This document shows positions 6,570 to 36,773 of a DNA stretch of 64,000 bases, in pieces. The notes beneath the pieces were generated by a model. The model was not told where the DNA came from. It was given only the letters and a program-made list of their open reading frames with translations, and searched no databases. The position numbers and the translations under genes are program-made. Positions within the stretch are counted from its first letter, which is position 1, and each line of letters begins with the position of its first letter. The stretch comes from a phage: sequence record PZ386974.1. One strand, written 5' to 3'.

Positions 6570-8783
6570 TTATTTGGCCGCTTCCACGGCCTTCATGAAT
6601 TTAACGATTTGAGCGACCTGTTCTTTAGAAAGAGTACCACGTCGTCCCATGTATTCTGACACAATATGATAATTGGTTTCAAATTCAATAACCATTTTAT
6701 CATCATTATCGTAAGCATTATCTTTAAGCTTATCGAAAATTTTAGCACACAATTCTAACTTCTTATTCAGATCTCTGTTAGTAGCACCTGAGAATCGATT
6801 CCATCCCCAACGATTATTTACTGTTGAAAGTTTTGCAAAATCTTTACTGATTTCTTTGTTCTTAGAGCTAAAATACTTACTAAGGAAGTTGAGCTCTTCA
6901 TTACGAGTAATATGATTCAAATAAGGCTGTGCTCTACGACTTGGTGATACATACTCATCATAATCTACTTTATCGATTAGCATAATATAGTCATTAATTG
7001 ATTTTTCAAACAAACATTCTACTTCACCAAGTTTACGAACTTTCTTAGCAATCTGTGGACGGACTACAGTGAACTCTTTAATACCTGACAAATCAGCAAT
7101 ACGGGTCAAGAAATTGGAGTCATAGTTCAACCAACCTTTATCTGCGTCAAGACATTCAGCATTAGAACGATTACGAACTATAGCATAACCTTGGATTTCA
7201 TCAGCTTCACTCGCCGGAATAAAGAGATCTTCTGATACCCAAACATCGTTTTCATTCTTAAAGAACCGATGAGCACTCGGGGATTTAGGACGAGGCCCAT
7301 TAGAACGAGTCTTGACTTCAATCCATGGCTTAACGATTTGTAAAAGCTCTGAAGTCTTGTACATGTTAATGTTGTCGCCATCAAAGATAACTTTAAGGCG
7401 TTCCAGAAGTTTCATTGCGTCTTCGTCTGTAGGGTCAACGAATAGTACGCTTTTACCAAAACCACGTGGGACTTTACCGGTTAATTTAACCTCGTCTTTA
7501 GACATTTCAATTGAATTAAGAGCTCGCATTAATGGAACACGTCCCTTAACGTCATCAATAACAATTTCAACGTTTTTAATGTTAATGCCAATCAGACTGT
7601 TAATTGAAATAGTTGCAGATGAGCTACCACTTTCACGAATACGACGAAGACGAGGGTCTTCAATGATATCGTATACGACGCCGAGATTACACCATTCGGG
7701 TCCCATTTTAAAACGTTTGTACAACTCAGAATAAGTTAGTTGTTCTTTAGAATATTTCAGAGATTCAATATTAGACCCAGCCTTTTCCATGTATTTGCGA
7801 GCGGTATAGCCAAGAGAATCAATTTCACGGAACACATGGCGCGGGTATTTACAATCAATCCATTTCTTAGAATCTTCAGCGAACAATTTAGCATCGATTT
7901 CTGCAACGCGTTTATGGATATTTGCTACTGTACGTTTATCAAATGACAATGCTTCACGAGACGGGGCTACATCTAGTTCACCCATAGGGAATTTAATATA
8001 AGCTGTAGTGCATCGCGTCATCATCCATGTTTGTTCTTTAATAACACTTCCGATTGGATATACAATACCACCATAAACAGCCATGATATTACCACGTTCA
8101 CCCCATGGAGCTTCCTTGGCCAAATATACATCGTCAAATTCAGGGAAGTATTTGATATCTTTAACACCGCGAACTTCTGCAATATCACCTAGAGGACGCA
8201 TAACATATGCAATTTCAGATGCGAACTTTTCAAAATCTTCTGGGTTAACCGGTACAACTACTTCTACACCCGTACGGTCATCAGGGCCCATCTTATCTAC
8301 GAAGGTTGGCTTAATCTGTGGACCACTGTCATCTTGATAAATTACATAACCACGAACTTCACCGTTGTGATAAGATGTAAGGTTAAACGTATCGGTATAT
8401 GCTAGTGGAGCTTTAGAGCCGAGTCCGAATCCACCAATGAAATCGTTACTCGATGTTTTAGTTGAAGCAAAATATGAGTTATAGATTCCTGGCTCTTCGT
8501 CATTACCTCGAATGGTGAAATCACTCATACCAGGACCAAAGTCTCGAACTACAAAACGCGGGTCTAAACGACCTGGAGCCTGAACAATAAACTTATCAGT
8601 GCAACCATTAAGAATTTGTCCATCGATACAGTTTGTGATTAATTCACGTACACAAGCCAATTCTTTGTTTGTATAAAGGTCATTAGACAAAATCTTATAA
8701 ACTTTGCTATTGCCTTGAATAGTAAATGCTGTGCTCTTACCGCCTGAACCAATAATCGTTTCTTTAGCCGTTTCAATAATCAT
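6570..8783 (-). CDS. rIIA: rIIA protein
   Basis: 737 aa; N-terminal region with DLYTNK...RELITN...PGRLDPRFV...DFGPGMS matches recalled T4 rIIA. Confidence 0.85.
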   Translation of the reverse strand: MIIETAKETIIGSGGKSTAFTIQGNSKVYKILSNDLYTNKELACVRELITNCIDGQILNGCTDKFIVQAPGRLDPRFVVRDFGPGMSDFTIRGNDEEPGIYNSYFASTKTSSNDFIGGFGLGSKAPLAYTDTFNLTSYHNGEVRGYVIYQDDSGPQIKPTFVDKMGPDDRTGVEVVVPVNPEDFEKFASEIAYVMRPLGDIAEVRGVKDIKYFPEFDDVYLAKEAPWGERGNIMAVYGGIVYPIGSVIKEQTWMMTRCTTAYIKFPMGELDVAPSREALSFDKRTVANIHKRVAEIDAKLFAEDSKKWIDCKYPRHVFREIDSLGYTARKYMEKAGSNIESLKYSKEQLTYSELYKRFKMGPEWCNLGVVYDIIEDPRLRRIRESGSSSATISINSLIGINIKNVEIVIDDVKGRVPLMRALNSIEMSKDEVKLTGKVPRGFGKSVLFVDPTDEDAMKLLERLKVIFDGDNINMYKTSELLQIVKPWIEVKTRSNGPRPKSPSAHRFFKNENDVWVSEDLFIPASEADEIQGYAIVRNRSNAECLDADKGWLNYDSNFLTRIADLSGIKEFTVVRPQIAKKVRKLGEVECLFEKSINDYIMLIDKVDYDEYVSPSRRAQPYLNHITRNEELNFLSKYFSSKNKEISKDFAKLSTVNNRWGWNRFSGATNRDLNKKLELCAKIFDKLKDNAYDNDDKMVIEFETNYHIVSEYMGRRGTLSKEQVAQIVKFMKAVEAAK

Positions 8784-8795
8784 ATTTTTCTCTCA

Positions 8796-8996
8796 TCACA
8801 AGTTACGTTTAAAAATTTCTGCTACTTCAAGAAGTTCTTCTTTAGTAGCTGTATCGGTTTGTATTTTATATCGAATTTCTTTAAAGCGTTCTTTAAAGGA
8901 CTCTGCTGACTCGATATCAAAAAATCTTTGGATAAGCCGGAATTCCCGGAGCACTGCTTTATCAAAAAGTTCCAAGTCCACGTTATATGTTCTCAT
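8796..8996 (-). CDS. hypothetical protein (66 aa; rIIA.1 position)
   Basis: ATG start; positional equivalent of T4 rIIA.1. Confidence 0.45.
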   Translation of the reverse strand: MRTYNVDLELFDKAVLREFRLIQRFFDIESAESFKERFKEIRYKIQTDTATKEELLEVAEIFKRNL

Positions 8997-9088: not shown

Positions 9089-10189
9089 TTACGCTGTGAA
9101 GATTTTATCCCACATCGCAACAACTGCATCTCGATTATACTTCTTCCATACTGCTTCAGCACGTTTAACTCGAGCTTCGTATGTGTCAGTGAATTCTAAT
9201 ACAGCTTTTGTGTAAAGCGCAACTACTTCTTTCTTAGGAGTAGAGGAATCAATTTCTACACGCACAGTATCTGGGTCATATTCGAATGTCGCGTGCGGAT
9301 AATCCTTAAAAACTAACTGGATTACAGGGACACCTTTAGAGATGGCTTCAATAGAACTATTCTCTACCGTACCTGTGTCAGGACACGTATTAATAAGTGC
9401 TTTAGCTGTTTTAAGACGTTCCATAATTTCACTGTGTGGAGCATCAATAATAACAGGATATTTAGCCGGTGGTGCCCATTTACTAGGACAGTATCCTACA
9501 CCATTTTCGCCTAGTGCTTTAATCGCTTCAAGAGCAACATCAGTACGACGCATTTTAGTGTCATAACGTTGTGCACTAATAATCAGATCAGTCGCCGGAA
9601 GAACTTCAGGTTTCTCATTCAAACAAATAACCGGATAATCTTCGGCTTCAAACAACGGATTTGCTCGCCAATAATCATAATCAATTTTGTCAGTCAGACC
9701 CGAAGTCATATAACAATATTTACGTTCAAATTCACGGAAGGCTTTAGTAGGAGCATAACTCTTACCACCATTCTTATGAATTTGAATAGTCTGGTCCCAA
9801 ATTTGAACAATGCCACGAGATACCGGTTCAAATGGTGTTGCCATAAAATTCTTATGAACTTTAGAGAGACCTGCGTCTTTAATTGCCTGAACGGTTAGTT
9901 TGGTCGGTTCCATTGTAACAACGAAATCATACTCATTAATGCCGGCTAGTTCAACAATCTTACGAGCCATAGTATAACTCATACCTAGACTGAATTTAGT
10001 CAGATGACCAACAGGATGATGATTAACTTTCCAATCACCAAATGTGTCATTATCAAAACCGATATAATCAATATCGGCACCGATGGACACAAGATATTTC
10101 AACACATTTAAATGTACTGCTTCAAGACCACCTTGTACACGTTCTGGGTTAAATGGGACTGCGCGAGATGGGATAAACATAACTTTCAT
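9089..10189 (-). CDS. GT-B fold glycosyltransferase, candidate hmC-DNA pentosyl(arabinosyl)transferase
   Basis: 366 aa; C-terminal segment TGTVENSSIEAISKGVPVI resembles GT4-type donor-binding motif; sits where T4 has gene 60/mobA. Confidence 0.6.
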   Translation of the reverse strand: MKVMFIPSRAVPFNPERVQGGLEAVHLNVLKYLVSIGADIDYIGFDNDTFGDWKVNHHPVGHLTKFSLGMSYTMARKIVELAGINEYDFVVTMEPTKLTVQAIKDAGLSKVHKNFMATPFEPVSRGIVQIWDQTIQIHKNGGKSYAPTKAFREFERKYCYMTSGLTDKIDYDYWRANPLFEAEDYPVICLNEKPEVLPATDLIISAQRYDTKMRRTDVALEAIKALGENGVGYCPSKWAPPAKYPVIIDAPHSEIMERLKTAKALINTCPDTGTVENSSIEAISKGVPVIQLVFKDYPHATFEYDPDTVRVEIDSSTPKKEVVALYTKAVLEFTDTYEARVKRAEAVWKKYNRDAVVAMWDKIFTA

Positions 10190-10200
10190 AATTAAGCCTT

Positions 10201-10233
10201 ATTAAAATTAAAATGAAGCTCCCGAAGGAGCTT
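10201..10233 (-). terminator. intrinsic terminator, UUCG-tetraloop hairpin AAGCTCC/GGAGCTT plus U-rich tail
   Basis: Overlaps gene 39 stop codon. Confidence 0.5.
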
Positions 10234-12049
10234 AGGACATCCATTCTTTACGAAGTTCTGAATCATCACCCATCAACATTTCAAAGAGTTCTTTCCAATT
10301 TTCAGGAAGTTTAACTACGTCGTACACAGGGTTCTGAATCATTTCACGATATTCTGACTTTTCAAGGGAGCCTAATCCCTTGATGTATCGAATACTATGC
10401 TTAGGCAGTGTATATTTAACTTCTTCATACTCAGCTACAGTATAAAACCATTTTTGAGTTTTGCCAATTTGTGCAATAATTACAGGTGTTTTAACAAAGC
10501 GAATACGTCCTTGTTCAAACAATTCAGGCCAATTACTAAAGAAAGCAAGCAAAGCTGGATAAATGCTTCCAAGACCGTCATGATCGGCATCAGTCATAAT
10601 TGCAATATTACGATAGTTCGTATTCTCTGCCTTTTCACCAAGAATAAGACCTGTGATAGCACAGATATCAAAGAGCTCTTTGTTCTTCATCATATCAGCA
10701 TATGACATACCCCAGCTATTCATCACCTTACCACGTAATGGGAATCCACCATGTAGTTCACGGTCACGAACATCAATGAGATAACCAATTGCCGAATCAC
10801 CTTCTGTTAAGAACAATGTCGTATCTGCATCTTTACCACATTGGTTAGCTTTAATATGCTTATGAACCTTAGCTTTAGTTGCCTTTTTAGCTGCTTTAGT
10901 TTCTGCAGCCTTTTCTGCCGCCAATTTACGAGCTAATGCTGCTTCAACAATAGGCATAATCAAGGCTTCGTTTTTAAGAAGTGCCTGAGCAATTTTCTTA
11001 GCATCTAATTGGATATGATTACGAATATCACCATATGTTGACGTTAAACGTTCTTTAGTCTGAGAATCAAAACGCATGTTGCTCATGTCTCTAATAAACA
11101 TCAACATTGTGAGACATTCTTTAACACGAGCTTTAGTGACTTCAATACCCTTATATTTCTTTTTAATACCGGGCAAAAGATGTTCGCAGATATCATCCAT
11201 TACACATTCAACATGATGACCACCATTTTTAGTATGGATGTTATTCACATAAGTTAAATGACGGAAGCCATCTGGTGATGTTGTGAATGCTATAGAGACT
11301 TTATCATTTTCTTGAATGATGTTATCTTCGCCAAATTGTTTAGCAAATCGTTTAAAATTACCATCAACCTTTTTACCATTAAATGTGAACTTGATATCAG
11401 GATAAACGACTGCCAACGTTTGAAGTCGGTCTAAAGTAATATCTAAATAAACTTGAGATAAATTATGCTCTTCAAATGAAGAGAAATCAGGAGTGAAGAT
11501 TACTTTAGTGCCTTTACCTTTAGATTTCTTAGAAGACCATGATTTGTTTTCCATTCCGTTTGAACAGTTAACAGTGATTTCATTTTCGCCATCTGACGTG
11601 ATGCCTGTAAACAACGTAGAGAAGATATTAGTTAAACTACTCCCGACGCCGTTCATACCACCAGTCTTGCGTTCAGAGTCATCACCAAAGTTACCACCGG
11701 CCTTTGGAATAGTCCAGGCTGCTACAGGCCCAGGAATTTGTTCACCTGTTTGGTCTGTAACTAAACCTTGAGGAATACCACGTCCGTTATCTTCCACCGA
11801 AACTTGATTATTTTTAATTTGCACATCAATTTTATTTGCAAACTTAAATGATGTACGAATAGCTTCATCAACCGAGTTGTCAATAATCTCATCGATTAAT
11901 TTAACCAGACCAGGAACATATTCAACTTGCTGATATTTACCAAACAAAAAACGCTCATGTGCTTCTTTGGCCGAAGAACCAATATACATACCACTGCGTT
12001 TCTTAATATGTTCTACATCTGACAATACCTTAATTTCATTTTTAATCAT
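10232..12049 (-). CDS. 39: DNA topoisomerase II large subunit (GyrB-like), unsplit
   Basis: 605 aa single ORF; N-terminus MIKNEIKVLSDVEHIKKRSGMYIGS matches recalled T4 gp39; GAGGAGA SD. Confidence 0.9.
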   Translation of the reverse strand: MIKNEIKVLSDVEHIKKRSGMYIGSSAKEAHERFLFGKYQQVEYVPGLVKLIDEIIDNSVDEAIRTSFKFANKIDVQIKNNQVSVEDNGRGIPQGLVTDQTGEQIPGPVAAWTIPKAGGNFGDDSERKTGGMNGVGSSLTNIFSTLFTGITSDGENEITVNCSNGMENKSWSSKKSKGKGTKVIFTPDFSSFEEHNLSQVYLDITLDRLQTLAVVYPDIKFTFNGKKVDGNFKRFAKQFGEDNIIQENDKVSIAFTTSPDGFRHLTYVNNIHTKNGGHHVECVMDDICEHLLPGIKKKYKGIEVTKARVKECLTMLMFIRDMSNMRFDSQTKERLTSTYGDIRNHIQLDAKKIAQALLKNEALIMPIVEAALARKLAAEKAAETKAAKKATKAKVHKHIKANQCGKDADTTLFLTEGDSAIGYLIDVRDRELHGGFPLRGKVMNSWGMSYADMMKNKELFDICAITGLILGEKAENTNYRNIAIMTDADHDGLGSIYPALLAFFSNWPELFEQGRIRFVKTPVIIAQIGKTQKWFYTVAEYEEVKYTLPKHSIRYIKGLGSLEKSEYREMIQNPVYDVVKLPENWKELFEMLMGDDSELRKEWMS

Positions 12050-13998: not shown

Positions 13999-14418
13999 TT
14001 ATGCGAAAGCCGCTGGGCTATATTTTTTAATTTGGAATTCAGGAACTACCATGAACTGTCCAGCAAAAACAATATTGTAGAGCTTGACGCCATCTTCTAT
14101 CCAACGGTCGCTAATAAATCCGGCGATTTGCTTAGTTTTCCATGGCGTTCCATCAGTTGCCGCAGCAATAGTGAATTCATGGTCTTTTTCAACAGAAACT
14201 GATCTGCATAGTCCCCATTTGAACGCACGTTCTTCTGGCTCAATGAACTGGCTTGAGACGTAGCCAATATTACCATTGGCATCACGAACTTTAACTTGGT
14301 TACGACCAAAAACCGGATCACTCACAGAAAGAACTTCAACCAACTTCCCGGCAACTTTAGAGCGAGAAGCAACAGATACATATACGTAATCACCTGTAGA
14401 GAGATTTACAATATTCAT
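13999..14418 (-). CDS. hypothetical protein, tandem paralog family member A (139 aa)
   Basis: Shares C-terminal motif GFISDxWIEDGxKLYNIVFxGxF with next two ORFs. Confidence 0.5.
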   Translation of the reverse strand: MNIVNLSTGDYVYVSVASRSKVAGKLVEVLSVSDPVFGRNQVKVRDANGNIGYVSSQFIEPEERAFKWGLCRSVSVEKDHEFTIAAATDGTPWKTKQIAGFISDRWIEDGVKLYNIVFAGQFMVVPEFQIKKYSPAAFA

Positions 14419-14427
14419 AATAATTCC

Positions 14428-14892
14428 TTAAGCTTTACGAGGAGACACATAGCGAGTGATTTCAGATTCTTTAACAACTCGGAAGTCACCTAAGAATACG
14501 ATATTGTATAACTTTTCACCATCTTCAACCCATTGGTCACTAATGAAGCCACACATAGTATCAGTTTTGCTTGGATAACCGTATTCATCGATGAAGTCAA
14601 ATTCTTTATCGGTTATAAATTCAACGCCTTTGCAAAGGGCCCATTTGAACTGTGTAGTAGGCTCAACGATATCGCTTGAAGCAAAGTGGGCACTTACACG
14701 AGTTTCCAAGAATTTAGGACTTACATAGGCGAACTGAGTTTCAGTTTTTCCAGAACTAGGAATGATTCGAACTTTAACTTCTTTAATACGTCCCATGCCA
14801 TTTGTGCGAAGTCCGACAACTTCAACCAGACGACCTGCGGCTTTAGAACGGGATGCAGTTGATACACGCTTAATTTCACCAATATTAATCAT
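14428..14892 (-). CDS. hypothetical protein, tandem paralog family member B (154 aa)
   Basis: Start moved to ATG at 14892 by alignment with paralog A (MINIGEIKRVSTASRSKAAGRLVEV); track start lies in promoter element. Confidence 0.5.
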   Translation of the reverse strand: MINIGEIKRVSTASRSKAAGRLVEVVGLRTNGMGRIKEVKVRIIPSSGKTETQFAYVSPKFLETRVSAHFASSDIVEPTTQFKWALCKGVEFITDKEFDFIDEYGYPSKTDTMCGFISDQWVEDGEKLYNIVFLGDFRVVKESEITRYVSPRKA

Positions 14893-14923
14893 ATTTTTTC
14901 TCTCTTTGTTTAAATTGAATTCA

Positions 14924-14951
14924 TTATACTCCATCCATCCTTGGATGTACA
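14924..14951 (-). promoter_or_regulatory. early-type promoter cassette variant (TGTACA ... TATAAT)
   Basis: Upstream of paralog B; overlaps track-predicted N-terminal extension. Confidence 0.4.
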
Positions 14952-14954
14952 ACA

Positions 14955-15449
14955 TTAATTTAGAATATTAACCATAGCACTACGTGGAACTACACTAAAA
15001 TCACCTGCATGAACAACGTTCAGAAGTTCAACACCGTCTTCAATCCACTGATCAGTTACCCATCCACTCACTGGACCTGCGAACGGACGTCGAATTGAAA
15101 CAGCTTTACACAACAAATCAGTAGGCTCAATAGGCTTAATCAGAGTACCGTACATACAAGCGATATCCATATCAATACAGATGTCTTTAACGGGTTCTAC
15201 TTCTTCAATCAACAGTTCAAAGTCAGTGCTTGGAATGGCGGTAGTAGAAATTGTACCGTGTGAATTTTTAATTTCTAAGAATAACCAAGGGCCTTCAGCT
15301 TGTTTGATGAAGTTAACAATAGTGAAACTATTACCTTGAGTGGCACCTAAAATTTCACAAAACTTTTCATAAGCTCGCACTGAAGCACCGTACCAGTTGA
15401 TTTGTTTTTCGTCTTTCATGATGTAAGTAGCCGTAGTATTGATGTTCAT
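14955..15449 (-). CDS. hypothetical protein, tandem paralog family member C (164 aa)
   Basis: C-terminal motif WVTDQWIEDGVELLNVVHAGDF shared with paralogs A/B. Confidence 0.5.
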   Translation of the reverse strand: MNINTTATYIMKDEKQINWYGASVRAYEKFCEILGATQGNSFTIVNFIKQAEGPWLFLEIKNSHGTISTTAIPSTDFELLIEEVEPVKDICIDMDIACMYGTLIKPIEPTDLLCKAVSIRRPFAGPVSGWVTDQWIEDGVELLNVVHAGDFSVVPRSAMVNILN

Positions 15450-30224: not shown

Positions 30225-30773
30225 TTAACGAGCCCATTTGATGATTTCTGTAATCAAACCATTACGTTCGCTTGCATTAAATCCTATAACTTTGTTAGCA
30301 CCATCATGATTAAGTAATTGATACGTTTGGATTTTGTTATGAATTGCAAACTCTTCAAAATGTGAAATGACTGTATTAAAACCGAATGAAGACAAAGTAA
30401 TAAGGTCGTCTTCAAAACTTTCAGTCATTTCGTTACGTGTTAAAATAATTGTGAACACATCATGGTTTTGGCAAAGACGAACATAATCCTGTTCATAAAC
30501 ATCAAGAACCGAGTCCGCATCTTGTCGAATACGTCCATAAACCCAGTTACTAATATATCCACGGTCTAACAGATAAATCTTAGTAGGGTCTAAATAATTC
30601 AACATCGTTTCGAAACAGCCAACTTCATTTCGAGACTTAACATCGAAACGTCCATCAACCGTTCGTTTAGGGAAATCAATCTTTACATATCTTTCACTAA
30701 TTTCCATTATGTCATTAATGAAAGTTGTTTTACCAGCATTATCCGGGCCATCTACTAAAATAATTTTAGCCAT
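30225..30773 (-). CDS. P-loop kinase-like protein (182 aa)
   Basis: Walker A GPDNAGKTT near N-terminus; small nucleotide/sugar kinase-like size. Confidence 0.5.
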   Translation of the reverse strand: MAKIILVDGPDNAGKTTFINDIMEISERYVKIDFPKRTVDGRFDVKSRNEVGCFETMLNYLDPTKIYLLDRGYISNWVYGRIRQDADSVLDVYEQDYVRLCQNHDVFTIILTRNEMTESFEDDLITLSSFGFNTVISHFEEFAIHNKIQTYQLLNHDGANKVIGFNASERNGLITEIIKWAR

Positions 30774-30774
30774 T

Positions 30775-31674
30775 TTATTCCTCGATTACGACATCTTCGT
30801 ATTTAGGTATATTATACGGCGAAGAAATTAAAGCATTAAAGTAGATGAACTCACCAAGACCTGGATGGAATACTTCTTCAGGATTTTCGAAATATTGAAT
30901 CTTCGGACGTCCTTTAAGAATTTGATAGTACTCAGTTTTAGTTGGTTTAAAAATTCGAATCAGCGCTTCTTCAGGATACTTATTTCTGTCGAAGCTATTA
31001 TTTGGATCGGTTATATAAAGCGGTTGGCCTAATTGAATTGCACATTCAACCACTTGTTCAAAACGATAGCATGGGTCACTAATTCGAAATGGATGAAAAA
31101 TACCATCTAGATGAATAGGAGCCAAATCACCTACAAGACGCTGCATGATGGAAGGACGTATAACTTTCTGCGTTACGATAATCTTATTACCATCTGCACC
31201 TGCGTTAACCAGCACTTCTTTTTGACGTTCATTCAACACAGTAGTTTGAAGTGAACGATTAACAGACAACATGTCGGTTTTTAAGAATTCATCAATATAA
31301 AAACGTGGTTTATTAGGGTCTGCAGTGATATTGAAATTGAATTCTACGTCAAAAGCGCCATCATATCCAGTGATATCTGTGATTAGAAAATCACAATCAT
31401 AATAAGCAATTAATGAATCAACCACAAATTCATTTTCAGACCAGAAATATTTACGAGTGTTATACGCGTTATCTTTATACCATAATGGAACAAACTTAAA
31501 TTCTGGGAAAAGACGTTCACATTCTTTAATATCAGATGCATTACGTGGATATGTAATCACATCGCCTGGATTAGCACGGTGCAAATGAAGTTGGAAGTTG
31601 CCATCCTTAAGGATAGCATACTGTCCAGTTTCATAAGACCGCATACTCAAAATAGGTACGCGGAAAATAGCCAT
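30775..31674 (-). CDS. hypothetical protein in beta-glucosyltransferase position (299 aa)
   Basis: Occupies T4 beta-gt locus between 42 and uvsX; no recognisable motif; TAATG-coupled to gene 42. Confidence 0.45.
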   Translation of the reverse strand: MAIFRVPILSMRSYETGQYAILKDGNFQLHLHRANPGDVITYPRNASDIKECERLFPEFKFVPLWYKDNAYNTRKYFWSENEFVVDSLIAYYDCDFLITDITGYDGAFDVEFNFNITADPNKPRFYIDEFLKTDMLSVNRSLQTTVLNERQKEVLVNAGADGNKIIVTQKVIRPSIMQRLVGDLAPIHLDGIFHPFRISDPCYRFEQVVECAIQLGQPLYITDPNNSFDRNKYPEEALIRIFKPTKTEYYQILKGRPKIQYFENPEEVFHPGLGEFIYFNALISSPYNIPKYEDVVIEE

Positions 31675-32390
31675 TAGTCAAGAAATCCTTTAACATAATC
31701 AAAATCACGTTCAAACACATGGGCACTTACCATGGTATGAGTATAATCACCAACTTCTACACCACATTCGTTAGCGATATAATGAAGTAATTTTCCTTGG
31801 AGATAAAAATCCAACTGCATAACAACAGCACAGTTCTGAGAACGCATATGACAGTGGGTATAAAGCTTACCATCGCGAATATAATAAGTCACTGAGTCAG
31901 TACATGGATATTCAAGCGTTTCGTCCGAATCAAGCAAAGCCTGATCAGAACTTTCTAGAATTTGGAACACAACTCTTCGAGAGTTAGGCTTCTCTTTAAG
32001 TTCTTTTAGAAGAGCCGGTAATTGGGCCGCAATGCGAGGACCATAGAAAGTGTTGAAGTTCGCAGGCAAAGCATCTGATTTTGGTTTAGAAATAAATTTA
32101 GCGACATTAGGATATGCTTTAAACGCTTCTTCTGCATCAGTACCACCAGAAATCATAAACTTCCAGAAGTCTTCGGCATATTCATAAGAGATGCGGTTAA
32201 TACGTGGGTCGGTCATTTTGAATGATGATGGATTGTCAACAACTACTGTCATGGACCCGATTTCATTACAACGTCCAATACGAGAATTAGTTACGAATTC
32301 GGGGTTTTCTAAAATTTCACGATTGACTGCTTTAAATGCGGTTTGAAAATCTGCGGCTTTGATATATTTCATTGTGTTATGTTTTCCCAT
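31674..32390 (-). CDS. 42: dCMP hydroxymethylase (thymidylate synthase family)
   Basis: 238 aa; active-site region YPCTDSVTYYIRDGKLYTHCHMRSQN parallels TS/gp42 PC(H)...YQRSxD core. Confidence 0.65.
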   Translation of the reverse strand: MGKHNTMKYIKAADFQTAFKAVNREILENPEFVTNSRIGRCNEIGSMTVVVDNPSSFKMTDPRINRISYEYAEDFWKFMISGGTDAEEAFKAYPNVAKFISKPKSDALPANFNTFYGPRIAAQLPALLKELKEKPNSRRVVFQILESSDQALLDSDETLEYPCTDSVTYYIRDGKLYTHCHMRSQNCAVVMQLDFYLQGKLLHYIANECGVEVGDYTHTMVSAHVFERDFDYVKGFLD

Positions 32391-32432: not shown

Positions 32433-32672
32433 TTATTTGAATTTCTTGGCAATGTTGATATAACGTAAAGCTTCAGAATCTATACTTCCAAGAACACTAT
32501 GAAGGAATGCATCAGTGTAGTATTCCAATTGAACAGGTTCTTTAATCACTTTAGCCGCTTTGGTTTCAAACAGGCCCATAAGGGCCTTTTTAAGAATTTG
32601 TTCGTTAGTGTTCAGTTTAATAGTCAAAATCTCTTCGTTAAGATTATAATTAAAAGTTTTTCTAGAAATCAT
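32433..32672 (-). CDS. hypothetical protein (79 aa)
   Basis: ATG ATGA-coupled to upstream ORF. Confidence 0.4.
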   Translation of the reverse strand: MISRKTFNYNLNEEILTIKLNTNEQILKKALMGLFETKAAKVIKEPVQLEYYTDAFLHSVLGSIDSEALRYINIAKKFK

Positions 32673-33838
32673 TCCGGGTACCTCAAAGCGTCATCAGAGT
32701 TAGTTATATCAATAATAGATATAGAGTTTTCTGCTAACCCGTTTTTAGATAATTGACGTTTATAATACCTTTCACAATATGTACACGTTGACCCACAGAT
32801 TTCATTAGCACAATCAAAATCTGGATGTCTGAACCACCTTTTTTCTAAAAAGCCATCTAACAAAGAGGTTTCAATATTTACTGTATGTGAAAACTCAGTC
32901 TCATTTTCAAGAGTGAAAATAGTCTCTAAAGGCTTCCACAGTTCTAACAAATTACCTTCAAACTTTTCAGAAGCGTATGCTTCAAGAACTTTCAAAATGT
33001 AGTCTGTGCTACCTGTACGTCCTGAAACTTTGAATTGAGTGATACCAATATCATTATAAAGTTTCAAATCTTGAGGACGAACAAAACGAGTTCTCAACCA
33101 ATTAAATGGGTCTGTATCACGAGCTTTAATACAGTGCTGCATTGGATATCCGTTTAAGGATTTAGCATCATCAGCTGTAACATCAGTACTATGGAAAATA
33201 TAGCAAGAGTCACGATAGCTACAATGTGTTGTATACCCTTTACCAGCATTAGAACAGAACTCGTTTACAAGAACTTCAAATATTATATTGTTCTTATTGC
33301 AAAACTCTGCTGCACGCTTCAGGAAAGAAACTGAACGGTTCTTATGAATTCCGCAACAGACCTTTTTGATGTTATATTGGTCATGCAAGTATTTGATTTG
33401 AGTTACAGCATCGACATGTAGAATTGTTGAAACTTCAATCTCAATATCTTTATTGACTTCACGAACAATTTCCATAACAACAGGGTTAGCGATAGTAATA
33501 CGCCATACGCCTATTGACCAAAGATACTGAACATAATCCTGAATAGCTTTCTTCTTCCACTCAACTAGTTCTCTTTTTGAACCAGGATTTATCGTGTTGA
33601 GTGTATAGTTAAAGCAAATACCTAATTCGTTACAACGTTTAACGTAATCTTCTAACATCTTTTTGTCAACGTCAGGAAGCCTAAAATCAGGTCTGGCTGC
33701 TACAAAAGCCATTTCTCTTGTAGAGCCGTATACTTCGTTTATCAAGCTATTAGGATAAGTTTTATTGAGCTCTACGATTTTATCAAGAAGAGCTAAATCA
33801 AAATTCGTTCCGATTTTAAAAGTATTCATTTTTTGCAT
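32669..33838 (-). CDS. Cys-rich enzyme of unknown function (389 aa), candidate Fe-S protein
   Basis: C-terminal CANEICGSTCTYC (CX4CX3CXYC) plus internal CSNAGKGYTTHCSYRDSC cluster; embedded in sugar module. Confidence 0.5.
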   Translation of the reverse strand: MQKMNTFKIGTNFDLALLDKIVELNKTYPNSLINEVYGSTREMAFVAARPDFRLPDVDKKMLEDYVKRCNELGICFNYTLNTINPGSKRELVEWKKKAIQDYVQYLWSIGVWRITIANPVVMEIVREVNKDIEIEVSTILHVDAVTQIKYLHDQYNIKKVCCGIHKNRSVSFLKRAAEFCNKNNIIFEVLVNEFCSNAGKGYTTHCSYRDSCYIFHSTDVTADDAKSLNGYPMQHCIKARDTDPFNWLRTRFVRPQDLKLYNDIGITQFKVSGRTGSTDYILKVLEAYASEKFEGNLLELWKPLETIFTLENETEFSHTVNIETSLLDGFLEKRWFRHPDFDCANEICGSTCTYCERYYKRQLSKNGLAENSISIIDITNSDDALRYPE

Positions 33839-33884: not shown

Positions 33885-34286
33885 TTATAGGTTCGGTTTA
33901 TATGATTTAAATGTTTCGAATTCGCCTTTATTCATAAGAGCTTTGAATTCGTCGGGACGCATAGCTTTGTCGTCGATAATCCAATCATATACTGGTTTAT
34001 GTGTTAGCAAATTATGGTACTTCAAACCAATGTTTTCCAAGTTCTGAATCAGACTTGGGAGAATGTCAATTGCTATACGACCAGGACCTACTGACTTCAT
34101 ACCGCGAGCAGTGTAAAGCGTTATGGTATGCCCTGCATCATACAGGGCATTAATGGCAGACACCATTTCGACGTCTGGTTTGAAGTTCACGTAATCACGA
34201 TTGTTATTCCACTCTGTTATACAATCATCGACATCAAAATAAAGATTAAGCATGTTTTCTACACGGTGCATTAGATTCGTTCCCAT
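33885..34286 (-). CDS. HAD-superfamily phosphatase-like protein (133 aa)
   Basis: Motif I FDVDDCIT near N-terminus and DD motif DWIIDD near C-terminus. Confidence 0.5.
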   Translation of the reverse strand: MGTNLMHRVENMLNLYFDVDDCITEWNNNRDYVNFKPDVEMVSAINALYDAGHTITLYTARGMKSVGPGRIAIDILPSLIQNLENIGLKYHNLLTHKPVYDWIIDDKAMRPDEFKALMNKGEFETFKSYKPNL

Positions 34287-35956
34287 TGATGAGTGATATC
34301 GCCACCGATTGGACGGTAAGAAACACCAGTTTCTTTATCAGTTAGTACCCATTTACCAGGATTTTTTGTAATCAGAGTAGCCGTTACAGGTTCTGCTACG
34401 TCATAACTAATAGAGCCGTCTTGAAGTACACGGCCCATGTTACGTAATTGCTTAGTCAGAAGTTCCATACCTTTATAATATGCGGCTACCGCTTTAAGTG
34501 GATTATTCTTGAAATAACCACCTAATGCAATCCAGATAATTGCTACGGCCAAATGATGATACTCGTTAAACGAACTCAGCTTTCCATATTTGTAAATTAA
34601 TGGATTGATGTTAATAGTCACATTACAAGTTGTTTCGTCAATAGTAAACTGTCCCCAGGTCGGATTAGCGTTGAATTCATCATAACCTGAAACAGCATAA
34701 AGCACTTTAGCTTCATCATACAATTTTGGCCCGTAAATCTTGGTTTCACCAAAATATCCACGAGGGTCGATAAACTTGACTTCGCCGTTATCAGTAATCA
34801 TAGTATTACTGAAGTTCGGGTCACCATGAATAACAGAGTACTGTCCCTGAGAACGGTTATGATAACGAATAAGGTGTTCTAAAGCTTGTTTCAGCATTGG
34901 CTTCAGACGCCCAATCTTAGTGTAGTTCACATGGGTGATTTTACCAAATGAATCAATCAATGGTTGAATGCTTTCACAACGATCAATAACTTTCGTATAG
35001 AATTCTTTAGTGAAATCACGACGAACAGTTTCAGGACTTACAAAATAAGTGTCTGTGCTGAATTTCAGTGCATCTAAAATTGCATCAACAATTTGTGGAC
35101 GAGCAAGACTTGATTTGGATTTAATATATTCAAATGCCGGCTTACCTTTAATGCGTTCCATTTCAAAGTTATTTTCATTAACAGAAACTAACTGAGGAAC
35201 TGAATCTGATTTCACTTTAAGATACCATGAAATCTCATCTTTCTGAAGAGCTCGACCCTGTTCGGTTAATGCGAATTTAGTTACAGTTTCTTCACCAATT
35301 TCAACTGCATTAAAACTACGATTAAGTTCACGAACTTCATGAGCTTTTTCAAGTTTAGGCATATCACCTAAATCAATTAGATTCATAAGCTCTGATTTAT
35401 TGAATGCGCTGCCGTAAAGGAATTCTACGAAATCACGTCCTTTGCAGTATTCATGAATTTCCTCATCGGTAGAACCCATATAGAATTCCCAGTCTTTGAA
35501 CTGATAAATTCCTACAACATTACCACCTGTTGAACCTACGTTAGTGATATTTTCACCGTCGAAATTATATCGACATTCGTCACCCTTAACATAGATTGCG
35601 TTAACATTCCAAGACCATGAACCAAAATCGGGAATAATATCACACCAGTTAACAATTACATTATGGCCGTCTAAATCTTTGTGTAATTTAGCAAGAGCAT
35701 AAGCAGAACCATACGCTTCATCAACTGTGCGAATAGTCACATTGAACCCTTCTTGCTCACAATAAGCTCGAACAGTTTCAGCAAATTTTGAATGAACTAC
35801 TACAATAATTTCATCTGCGCCAAGGTCAGAATAAATTGTATACAAATTGCTCAGAATAGTGTCTTGTTTATAGTTAACAAGCACCTTAGGAATATGATGC
35901 GTTATTGGATATAAACGAGTCGCCAGTCCAGCACCAAGAATAACAGCTTTTTTCAT
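34271..35956 (-). CDS. bifunctional sugar-1-phosphate nucleotidyltransferase / APH-like sugar kinase
   Basis: N-terminus ILGAGLATRLYPIT (G-x-G-T-R-L NTase motif); C-terminal HGDPNFSNTMITDNGEVKFIDPRG (Brenner kinase motif). Confidence 0.7.
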   Translation of the reverse strand: MKKAVILGAGLATRLYPITHHIPKVLVNYKQDTILSNLYTIYSDLGADEIIVVVHSKFAETVRAYCEQEGFNVTIRTVDEAYGSAYALAKLHKDLDGHNVIVNWCDIIPDFGSWSWNVNAIYVKGDECRYNFDGENITNVGSTGGNVVGIYQFKDWEFYMGSTDEEIHEYCKGRDFVEFLYGSAFNKSELMNLIDLGDMPKLEKAHEVRELNRSFNAVEIGEETVTKFALTEQGRALQKDEISWYLKVKSDSVPQLVSVNENNFEMERIKGKPAFEYIKSKSSLARPQIVDAILDALKFSTDTYFVSPETVRRDFTKEFYTKVIDRCESIQPLIDSFGKITHVNYTKIGRLKPMLKQALEHLIRYHNRSQGQYSVIHGDPNFSNTMITDNGEVKFIDPRGYFGETKIYGPKLYDEAKVLYAVSGYDEFNANPTWGQFTIDETTCNVTININPLIYKYGKLSSFNEYHHLAVAIIWIALGGYFKNNPLKAVAAYYKGMELLTKQLRNMGRVLQDGSISYDVAEPVTATLITKNPGKWVLTDKETGVSYRPIGGDITHQWERI

Positions 35957-35997: not shown

Positions 35998-36141
35998 CTA
36001 GTTAAAGCATTCATACTTTGCTTGTAGTCCAATCATAATCCATCCAATTACAAGTGTTGGAATCATTACTGGAGCCGTTAAGCTCCAGTAGATAGTCATG
36101 ACAAGCATCAATAGTAAAAGTCCTATTGTTATTGCTTTCAT
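35998..36141 (-). CDS. small membrane peptide (47 aa), below track threshold
   Basis: ATGA-coupled to SIS gene stop; translation MKAITIGLLLLMLVMTIYWSLTAPVMIPTLVIGWIMIGL... Confidence 0.3.
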   Translation of the reverse strand: MKAITIGLLLLMLVMTIYWSLTAPVMIPTLVIGWIMIGLQAKYECFN

Positions 36142-36773
36142 TGTTCGCCTCGTAACATGGCACCTAGTGCACCGCCTGGATGGAACTTAAGGAAGTCATT
36201 AGAGGTAAATCCACGCTCAGACGAAAGGTTGATAGCGAACGTATCGATAAGCGCTAACAACAATGTAGTGGACATAGTCGGAGCTAAAGAGTTCTCGTCA
36301 ACTTCTACCGCGATACCGGTACAGAACGTATAATCAAAAAGAGCTTCGTATTCTTGTGGAATGTCAGGGTTACAATGTAACAGAATCTGTTTAACCTGAG
36401 GACGAATCATACGAAGATGTTTAGCAACACCTATCATTTCTTCAGTCTTACCAGAACGACTGATGTGAACTAATACATCATTAGGTGCAATAAATCCTGC
36501 GTCACCATGAGAATAATGCCCGGTGTTCAAGTACATACTCGGGATACCGAGTGAAGCAAATGTCTCAGAAGCTTTAGTTGCAATATTAGCATTCTTACCA
36601 ACACCTGTAATAATTACTCGGCTTTCATAATTACTAAGTCCTGGGCGTCGAAGAGTTTCTAGAATAGCATTATAACGAGCAGGGTTTTGACTAATTACTT
36701 TGGCCATAGCGGCCAAAGAAGAAGCTTGTTTTATGATTGCGTCAATAGCGATAGTAATAGGAGTAGTTTTCAT
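36138..36773 (-). CDS. SIS-domain sugar-phosphate isomerase (KdsD/GutQ-like arabinose-5-phosphate isomerase type)
   Basis: 211 aa; GVGKNANIA...HGDAG...SRSGKTEE...LAPTMSTT match SIS/API motifs. Confidence 0.7.
   Translation of the reverse strand: MKTTPITIAIDAIIKQASSLAAMAKVISQNPARYNAILETLRRPGLSNYESRVIITGVGKNANIATKASETFASLGIPSMYLNTGHYSHGDAGFIAPNDVLVHISRSGKTEEMIGVAKHLRMIRPQVKQILLHCNPDIPQEYEALFDYTFCTGIAVEVDENSLAPTMSTTLLLALIDTFAINLSSERGFTSNDFLKFHPGGALGAMLRGEQ

Follow-up and report, generated by a model that had tools for sequence, protein, structure and literature searches.

The window analysed here, 64,000 nucleotides of phage DNA (sequence record PZ386974.1), carries an ORF of 366 amino acids between rIIA and the topoisomerase gene 39, which raises the question of what its product does and, if it modifies the phage DNA, at which step it acts. 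A first-pass annotation, made from the letters alone, read the product as a GT-B glycosyltransferase and as the best candidate for the enzyme that joins a pentose directly to hydroxymethylcytosine (hmC). The evidence presented below indicates that the enzyme is likely to act one step later: as the orthologue of RB69 gp3, it would add the second arabinose to arabinosylated 5-hydroxycytosine (5hoC) in the phage DNA.

In the ORF listing of the window, the 366-aa ORF runs from an ATG start on the minus strand (9089-10189) and has a Shine-Dalgarno-like AAGG (10197-10200) 7 nt 5' of it. Its downstream neighbour is rIIA.1 (8796-8996, minus strand; PHROG 1683), with 71% identity to T4 rIIA.1, followed by rIIA (6570-8783, minus strand), and its upstream neighbour encodes the topoisomerase II large subunit (10232-12049, minus strand; 605 aa). 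Residues 1-474 of this subunit correspond to T4 gp39 (79%) and residues 473-605 to T4 gp60; since both T4 proteins match within one product, gene 39 is unsplit, with T4 39 fused to 60. The location between rIIA and an unsplit gene 39, as initially annotated, is therefore confirmed by the coordinates. The ORF had also been placed in the slot of gene 60 and mobA, and this part needs refining: gene 39 already includes the gene 60 content, and the ORF accordingly replaces neither gene 60 nor mobA. The T4 gene order is rIIA, rIIA.1, 60, 60.1, mobA, 39. The ORF has been inserted after the 3' end of the fused 39+60 gene and ahead of rIIA.1, at a point where only a 54-nt spacer is present in T4.

The stop codon of gene 39 lies within a perfect, GC-rich hairpin of 7 bp (10216-10233, minus strand) that has TTCG as its tetraloop. 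A T-rich tract comes after this hairpin, which is situated 27 nt ahead of the start of the 366-aa ORF. The hairpin is the sole terminator-like site in the region, a count that is at chance level. A promoter scan around the ORF gave scores at the level of shuffled sequence and was set aside.

The ORF is not a chance ORF, as homologues are present in 212 phage records and the crystal structure of a 98%-identical protein is available. The 2.3-kb region around it exhibits 98-99% identity to about 150 Mosigvirus genomes, among them AV110, Shf125875, NicPhage, and APCEc01, and the gene is annotated in Shf125875 as 'similar to RB69 Orf003c'. The product is identical to RB69p003 (NP_861693.1) at 362 of 366 residues (99%), with equal length and with an identical map position, flanked by rIIA.1 and the fused gene 39. 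RB69 ORF003c/gp3 is thus the same gene in a sister phage, and differs from the window protein by four substitutions only.

A sequence search of the PDB with the 366-aa protein returned a 98%-identical chain, 9IQZ/9IR0, for which the entry titles given by Foldseek read 'phage HY126 glycosyltransferase' and 'with UDP' (released 2025-07-16). Six substitutions separate the window protein from this enzyme, which was deposited as the apo form (9IQZ) and, according to its title, as a UDP complex (9IR0); the latter indicates that the protein binds an NDP-sugar donor. The paper behind these structures is probably He et al. 2026 (Nat Chem Biol). An AlphaFold model calculated with a 10-sequence family alignment as input reached a pLDDT of 90.3 and a pTM of 0.87, as compared to a pLDDT of 37.7 with single-sequence input. 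In the structure comparison, the protein exhibited the features of a GT-B fold, namely a pair of Rossmann-like beta/alpha/beta domains, a cleft between them, and helices at the C-terminus that return to the N-domain. Its nearest structural neighbours include PimA, BshA, and WaaG, which act on lipids, small molecules, or LPS, and its identity to bacterial GT4 retaining enzymes (sucrose-phosphate synthase 6KIH, BshA, PimA, MshA, and WaaG) is 10-14%.

Searches of family databases placed the protein in PHROG 8302, of 'unknown function' (E 7.6e-223, residues 1-366 of 366), and returned no Pfam family even at E <= 10, Glycos_transf_1 and Glyco_transf_4 included, and no NCBIfam family above threshold. 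When the family profile was compared with 1.84 billion representative proteins, only 25 matches were obtained. Eight of the 10 distant matches that were scanned contained Pfam Glycos_transf_1, and 7 of those 8 also contained Glyco_transf_4. Against the PDB by sequence, the profile matched only the phage HY126 structure. The small number of relatives, together with the GT4 domains in the distant ones, indicates that the GT-B/GT4-like call is correct and that the family is small and isolated. Fold prediction and structure comparison could have yielded a non-GT fold, contrary to the first-pass annotation; they yielded GT-B, and the GT4-like assignment is thus borne out by the model, by Foldseek, by the 98%-identical glycosyltransferase in the PDB, and by the domains of the distant relatives.

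The most conserved block of the 366-aa family is TGTVENSSIEAISKGVPVI, a segment of the C-terminal domain (residues 272-290; positions 9320-9376, minus strand). In the 10-sequence alignment, T272, G273, T274, V275, E276, S279, E281, A282, I283, S284, G286, P288, and V289 are invariant. By analogy with GT4 enzymes, this segment would correspond to the 'E..EA..G.P' loop and helix that bind the nucleotide sugar, suggesting a role in donor binding. With regard to the canonical E-x7-E motif of retaining GT4 enzymes, the alignment has invariant E276 and E281 (in EAIS), with G273 eight residues ahead of E281; as read from this alignment, the first Glu of the motif appears not to be conserved in the family.

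The relationship to the T4 DNA glucosyltransferases was examined at the levels of sequence and profile. A tblastn search of the whole window with T4 alpha-gt and beta-gt gave nothing better than E = 1.3, the 47-55 interval contains only ORFs of about 100 aa, and hhalign of the 366-aa family gave no signal against T4 alpha-gt, T4 beta-gt, or the family of a 299-aa protein encoded elsewhere in the window. Neither sequence nor profile homology therefore links the 366-aa protein to the T4 alpha-GT/beta-GT family. The initial view that the window lacks recognisable homologues of alpha-gt (47-55) and beta-gt (42-uvsX) is correct at the sequence level, whereas the 42-uvsX gap does hold a candidate transferase, namely the 299-aa protein. 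T4 AGT (PDB 1Y6F/1XV5) and the T4 beta-glucosyltransferase transfer Glc to 5hmC, whereas the 366-aa enzyme would transfer Araf in the context of 5hoC. The probable acceptor is a sugar hydroxyl for the 366-aa enzyme and the base hydroxymethyl for the T4 enzymes, and the genome positions differ as well. A functional analogue is found in the second-sugar glucosyltransferase of T2/T6, which extends a monosaccharide on a DNA base to a disaccharide (gentiobiosyl-hmC), and which differs from the 366-aa enzyme in sugar, linkage, and base. A role of the ORF in a defence system was considered and dropped, as PADLOC returned no match.

The sugar module, which is complete in the window, lies at 30.2-36.8 kb, 20-26 kb from the 366-aa ORF, in agreement with the separation of about 20 kb from the 43-42 module noted initially. 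All of its genes described here are on the minus strand. They encode a thymidylate-kinase-like nucleotide kinase (30225-30773; RB69 gp45 homologue; PHROG 761); the 299-aa protein (30775-31674; PHROG 3891), a homologue of RB69 gp46:47 and DLP3 gp79 and a proposed alpha arabinosyltransferase; a gene-42/thymidylate-synthase homologue (31674-32390; Pfam Thymidylat_synt), orthologous to RB69 gp48 and by this orthology a 5-hydroxy-dCMP synthase (PMC13326640); a Peptidase_U32-family protein of 389 aa (32669-33838; RB69 gp50 homologue; Pfam E 7e-11, weak NCBIfam UbiU match); a HAD-type sugar phosphatase (33885-34286; equivalent to RB69 gp51 and HY126 AfhF; NCBIfam TIGR01689); a bifunctional sugar kinase and UDP-arabinose pyrophosphorylase of 561 aa (34271-35956; equivalent to RB69 gp52:53 and HY126 AfhE; Pfam NTP_transferase and kinase-like matches); and an arabinose-5-phosphate isomerase with a SIS domain (36138-36773; RB69 gp55 homologue; Pfam SIS, NCBIfam KpsF/KdsD). 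The genes for the 299-aa and 561-aa proteins are each a single intact ORF in the window, whereas the RB69 reference has their counterparts split as 46/47 and 52/53, owing to sequencing errors according to Lee et al. (PMC13326640).

The chemistry of the modification is known from published work. Thomas et al. 2018 reported arabinose in RB69 DNA and, using custom HMMs, HHpred, and Phyre2, named ORF003c a candidate arabinosyltransferase (PMC6024577); the argument of the first-pass annotation for the 366-aa ORF is the same as theirs. Two later studies, Lee et al. 2026 (PMC13326640) and Readshaw et al. 2026 (PMC13390438), reported that the Mosigvirus base is 5-hydroxycytosine, not hmC, that an ether bond joins the sugar to 5-hydroxycytosine in both RB69 and phage NP, and that the gene-42 homologue is a flavin/O2-dependent 5hodCMP synthase. 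The cytosine of RB69 is beta-D-Araf-(1-3)-alpha-D-Araf-O5-5-hydroxy-dC, with the structure determined by NMR, together with a mono-arabinosyl form. Phage NP contains the mono- and di-arabinosyl forms at 1:4, DLP3 DNA carries a third, beta-1,5-linked Araf, and chains of a single arabinose in Serratia phage LC53 and of two in Bas46 are on record. The initial view of the 366-aa ORF as a DNA pentosyltransferase fed by the 43-42 module can thus be retained, with the base corrected from hmC to 5hoC. Mosigvirus is considered to have two putative arabinosyltransferases in sequence, the first within the sugar cluster, and the gene between rIIA and the topoisomerase is assigned as the second (PMC13326640, PMC13390438); Lee et al. 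list RB69 gp3 as 'beta-arabinosyltransferase 2' (PMC13326640). The arabinosyltransferase idea has therefore been in print since 2018 (PMC6024577), a crystal structure is available too, and the substance of the present finding is already known.

The gene for the 299-aa protein is situated directly downstream of the gene-42 homologue, which is the slot of beta-gt in T4, and hhalign of the protein against T4 beta-gt gave no signal despite this position. Searches of Pfam, NCBIfam, PADLOC, and the PDB, the last by sequence and profile, returned no match for it. The protein exhibits 47% identity to Lazarus_075, and its gene is present in 349 phage records of many genera, with hosts that include Escherichia, Klebsiella, Serratia, Enterobacter, Proteus, Yersinia, Providencia, Erwinia, Acinetobacter, and others. 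Its homologue gp46:47 has been proposed as the initiating arabinosyltransferase (PMC13326640), and on the basis of this assignment the 299-aa protein, a putative glycosyltransferase, probably attaches the first arabinose.

Conversely, the distribution of the 366-aa family is narrow. By tblastn, the 212 records with the family are all from Mosigvirus-type phages, with one place each, or Acinetobacter phages, with two places each; both of these phage groups have the 299-aa gene, and the family thus occurs only in genomes with the 5hoC/UDP-arabinose module. The same search showed that the family is absent from module-bearing Serratia and Shewanella phages. The Serratia ATCC 39006 phages, 92A1, and Shewanella phage Thanatos lack it despite having pentosylated or arabinosylated cytosine or the module.

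In Lazarusvirus phages, two paralogues, 40-43% identical to the window ORF and arranged in tandem in Lazarus and DLP3, directly follow the module, in which the order is isomerase, pyrophosphorylase, phosphatase, TS homologue, 299-aa homologue, and kinase. The position of these Acinetobacter homologues, immediately behind the arabinose module, links the 366-aa family to the module, from which the Mosigvirus gene is 20 kb away. DLP3_077 and DLP3_076 are the very proteins assayed by Lee et al. The window protein exhibits full-length identities of 42.6% to DLP3 gp77 (XEO41443.1) and 40.3% to gp76 (XEO41444.1), which are 57.5% identical to each other and contain the same invariant TGTxE..S.EAI..G.PV segment; the 366-aa protein is thus a full-length member of the RB69 gp3/DLP3 gp76-77 family (PHROG 8302). 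The DLP3 proteins are encoded as a tandem pair and add the third, beta-1,5-linked sugar, whereas the Mosigvirus gene is single. Both DLP3 paralogues are co-orthologues of the Mosigvirus enzyme, which precludes a one-to-one transfer of function.

The number of family copies was compared with the reported chain lengths. Zero copies correspond to one sugar (LC53), one copy to the mono- and di-arabinosyl forms (Mosigvirus), and two copies to the tri-arabinosyl form (DLP3), so that the sugars outnumber the family members by one. This relationship, together with the module phages that lack the family, suggests that the family extends the glycan rather than starts it. The first-pass annotation, which favoured the 366-aa ORF for the base-proximal transfer, was therefore probably wrong on the step: the 299-aa protein is proposed for initiation instead, and the phyletic pattern points to chain extension.

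These comparisons are consistent with the following pathway. The 43-42 module would supply UDP-D-arabinofuranose, and the gene-42 homologue would supply 5-hydroxy-dCMP, which would substitute for dC in the phage DNA. The 299-aa module protein would then probably join the first arabinose, in alpha linkage, to O5 of the base. The 366-aa protein, as a soluble two-Rossmann-domain (GT-B, GT4-like) glycosyltransferase that binds a UDP-sugar, would subsequently add the second sugar on the DNA polymer, and by analogy with the DLP3 proteins we infer that it transfers Araf from UDP-Araf to arabinosylated 5hoC DNA and forms the beta-1,3 linkage. The product would be beta-D-Araf-(1-3)-alpha-D-Araf-O5-5-hydroxy-dC, which is the principal form of cytosine in Mosigvirus DNA, and the longer glycan would protect the DNA more broadly from nucleases of the host and from defences that depend on the modification. 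As a rule, enzymes with GT4-type folds are retaining. Given a beta linkage for the second sugar and an alpha linkage for the first, the fold could point to one of the two steps only in combination with the anomeric configuration of the donor.

The assays of the DLP3 proteins bear on the step. In the presence of UDP-Araf, gp76 and gp77 added a third arabinose to RB69 DNA in vitro; the single DLP3 transferases were inactive, and gp76 and gp77 were needed together (PMC13326640). Within the 366-aa family, transfer in vitro is accordingly known for the gp76/gp77 combination only. The literature surveyed, to which Mahler et al. 2025 and He et al. 2026 did not belong, contained no report on the activity of the Mosigvirus enzyme itself.

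The 366-aa enzyme might itself be the initiating transferase on the modified cytosine (5hoC, once thought to be hmC), as in Thomas et al. 2018, with the 299-aa protein acting elsewhere, for example in sugar-nucleotide metabolism. It is the sole protein in the window with a demonstrable GT fold, and the 299-aa protein exhibits no GT signature by sequence or profile. In addition, Thanatos TH1_063, which Lee et al. equate with gp46:47 on synteny, was reported to have UDP-xylose pyrophosphorylase activity in vitro and no transfer to plain plasmid DNA, in conflict with the glycosyltransferase assignment of gp46:47 (PMC13326640), and DLP3 gp79 alone was inactive on 5hoC DNA (PMC13326640). However, phages with modified cytosine or the module and no family member attach the first sugar without one, the copy number tracks the extra sugars, and gp76 and gp77 work on DNA that is already arabinosylated, which together make initiation by the 366-aa enzyme unlikely. 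The arabinosyltransferase gene aat of Bas46 is, we presume, the gene of the 366-aa ORF. If so, the viability of the Bas46 mutant without Aat, which is described as sensitive to plasmid-borne defence in the passage of PMC13216743 that cites Mahler 2025, also argues against an initiating role. In the corresponding passages of the citing papers, the Aat and Afh genes and the HY126 work are credited to Mahler et al. 2025 and He et al. 2026.

An extending enzyme could also require the first transferase as its partner in a complex, or could act on nucleotides that have yet to be polymerised. The activity of the DLP3 paralogues only in combination is compatible with such a mode of action, as is the conclusion of Lee et al. 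that their experiments leave both the mononucleotide and DNA possible as substrates of the first arabinosylation (PMC13326640). The addition of the third sugar was, however, shown on DNA (PMC13326640), and Mosigvirus has a single family member, which makes a pair of the gp76/gp77 type impossible there. We thus regard both versions as improbable, and a second-sugar enzyme acting on the DNA polymer as the better description.

A further possibility is that the 366-aa enzyme of Mosigvirus both initiates the glycan on 5hoC and extends it, in which case the 299-aa 'gp46:47' protein would be a sugar-nucleotide enzyme like TH1_063. We consider this very unlikely; if true, it would overturn the pathway of the 2026 papers. 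In a milder version, the normally retaining GT4-type scaffold may form the beta-Araf-(1-3) linkage by an unusual mechanism and may recognise the major-groove sugar without base flipping. Finally, a target other than DNA, for example a protein, a lipid, or a glycan of the host envelope, with a coincidental link to DNA modification, would suit the substrates of PimA, BshA, and WaaG and the distance of the Mosigvirus gene from the module, but is scarcely credible for a family that is confined to arabinose-module phages, is physically fused to the module in Acinetobacter phages, and has homologues, gp76 and gp77, that modify DNA in vitro (PMC13326640).

The second-sugar assignment concerns a modification of practical weight. 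In many T4-like phages, some of them candidates for therapy against E. coli, Shigella, and Acinetobacter, arabinosylated 5-hydroxycytosine is a shield against restriction enzymes and against CRISPR systems that target DNA, and the number of sugars alters which defences see the phage DNA. When the gene that sets the chain length is known, the modification state becomes predictable from the genome and phages become engineerable. This knowledge is already in the literature (2018, 2025, 2026), and the present finding is a correct rediscovery rather than a new lead.

In Shigella phage JK45 (MK962757.1, 1501-3104), the complete 366-aa gene is followed by an extra 411-nt ORF that matches the same protein, which looks like a partial tandem duplication between the 366-aa gene and rIIA.1. 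In phage LH01 (PP434429.1), the gene is in two pieces, owing to a frameshift or a sequencing error. The record OZ038340.1 ('Tegunavirus sp. BRC001') contains two family copies, 92.5% identical to the Acinetobacter Lazarusvirus protein, and its genus label looks inconsistent with its content.

Within the module, the gene for the U32 protein (32669-33838) adjoins that for the O2/flavin-dependent 5hodCMP synthase. Characterised non-protease U32 proteins, namely RlhA (ho5C2501 of 23S rRNA), TrhP (ho5U of tRNA), and UbiU/UbiV, are O2-independent hydroxylases, and by this analogy the U32 protein could provide an anaerobic route to 5-hydroxycytosine. It is present at >= 82% identity in 222 phage records with facultative-anaerobe hosts, including Shewanella phage Thanatos-2, and is absent from all phages of Acinetobacter, a strict aerobe, in which the module is otherwise present. 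A possible counter-example is provided by about 40 Escherichia phage records in which the 299-aa gene occurs without the U32 gene. Lee et al. describe RB69 gp50 only as a 'sugar or heterocycle reductase' (PMC13326640).

Elsewhere in the window, three adjacent ORFs of 139, 175, and 164 aa (13999-15449, minus strand) share a conserved C-terminal block, ...(I/V)(S/T)D(Q/R)W(I/V)EDG..L(Y/L)N(I/V)V..G.F.VV..., and, judged from this block, they appear to form a tandem paralogue family of unknown function.
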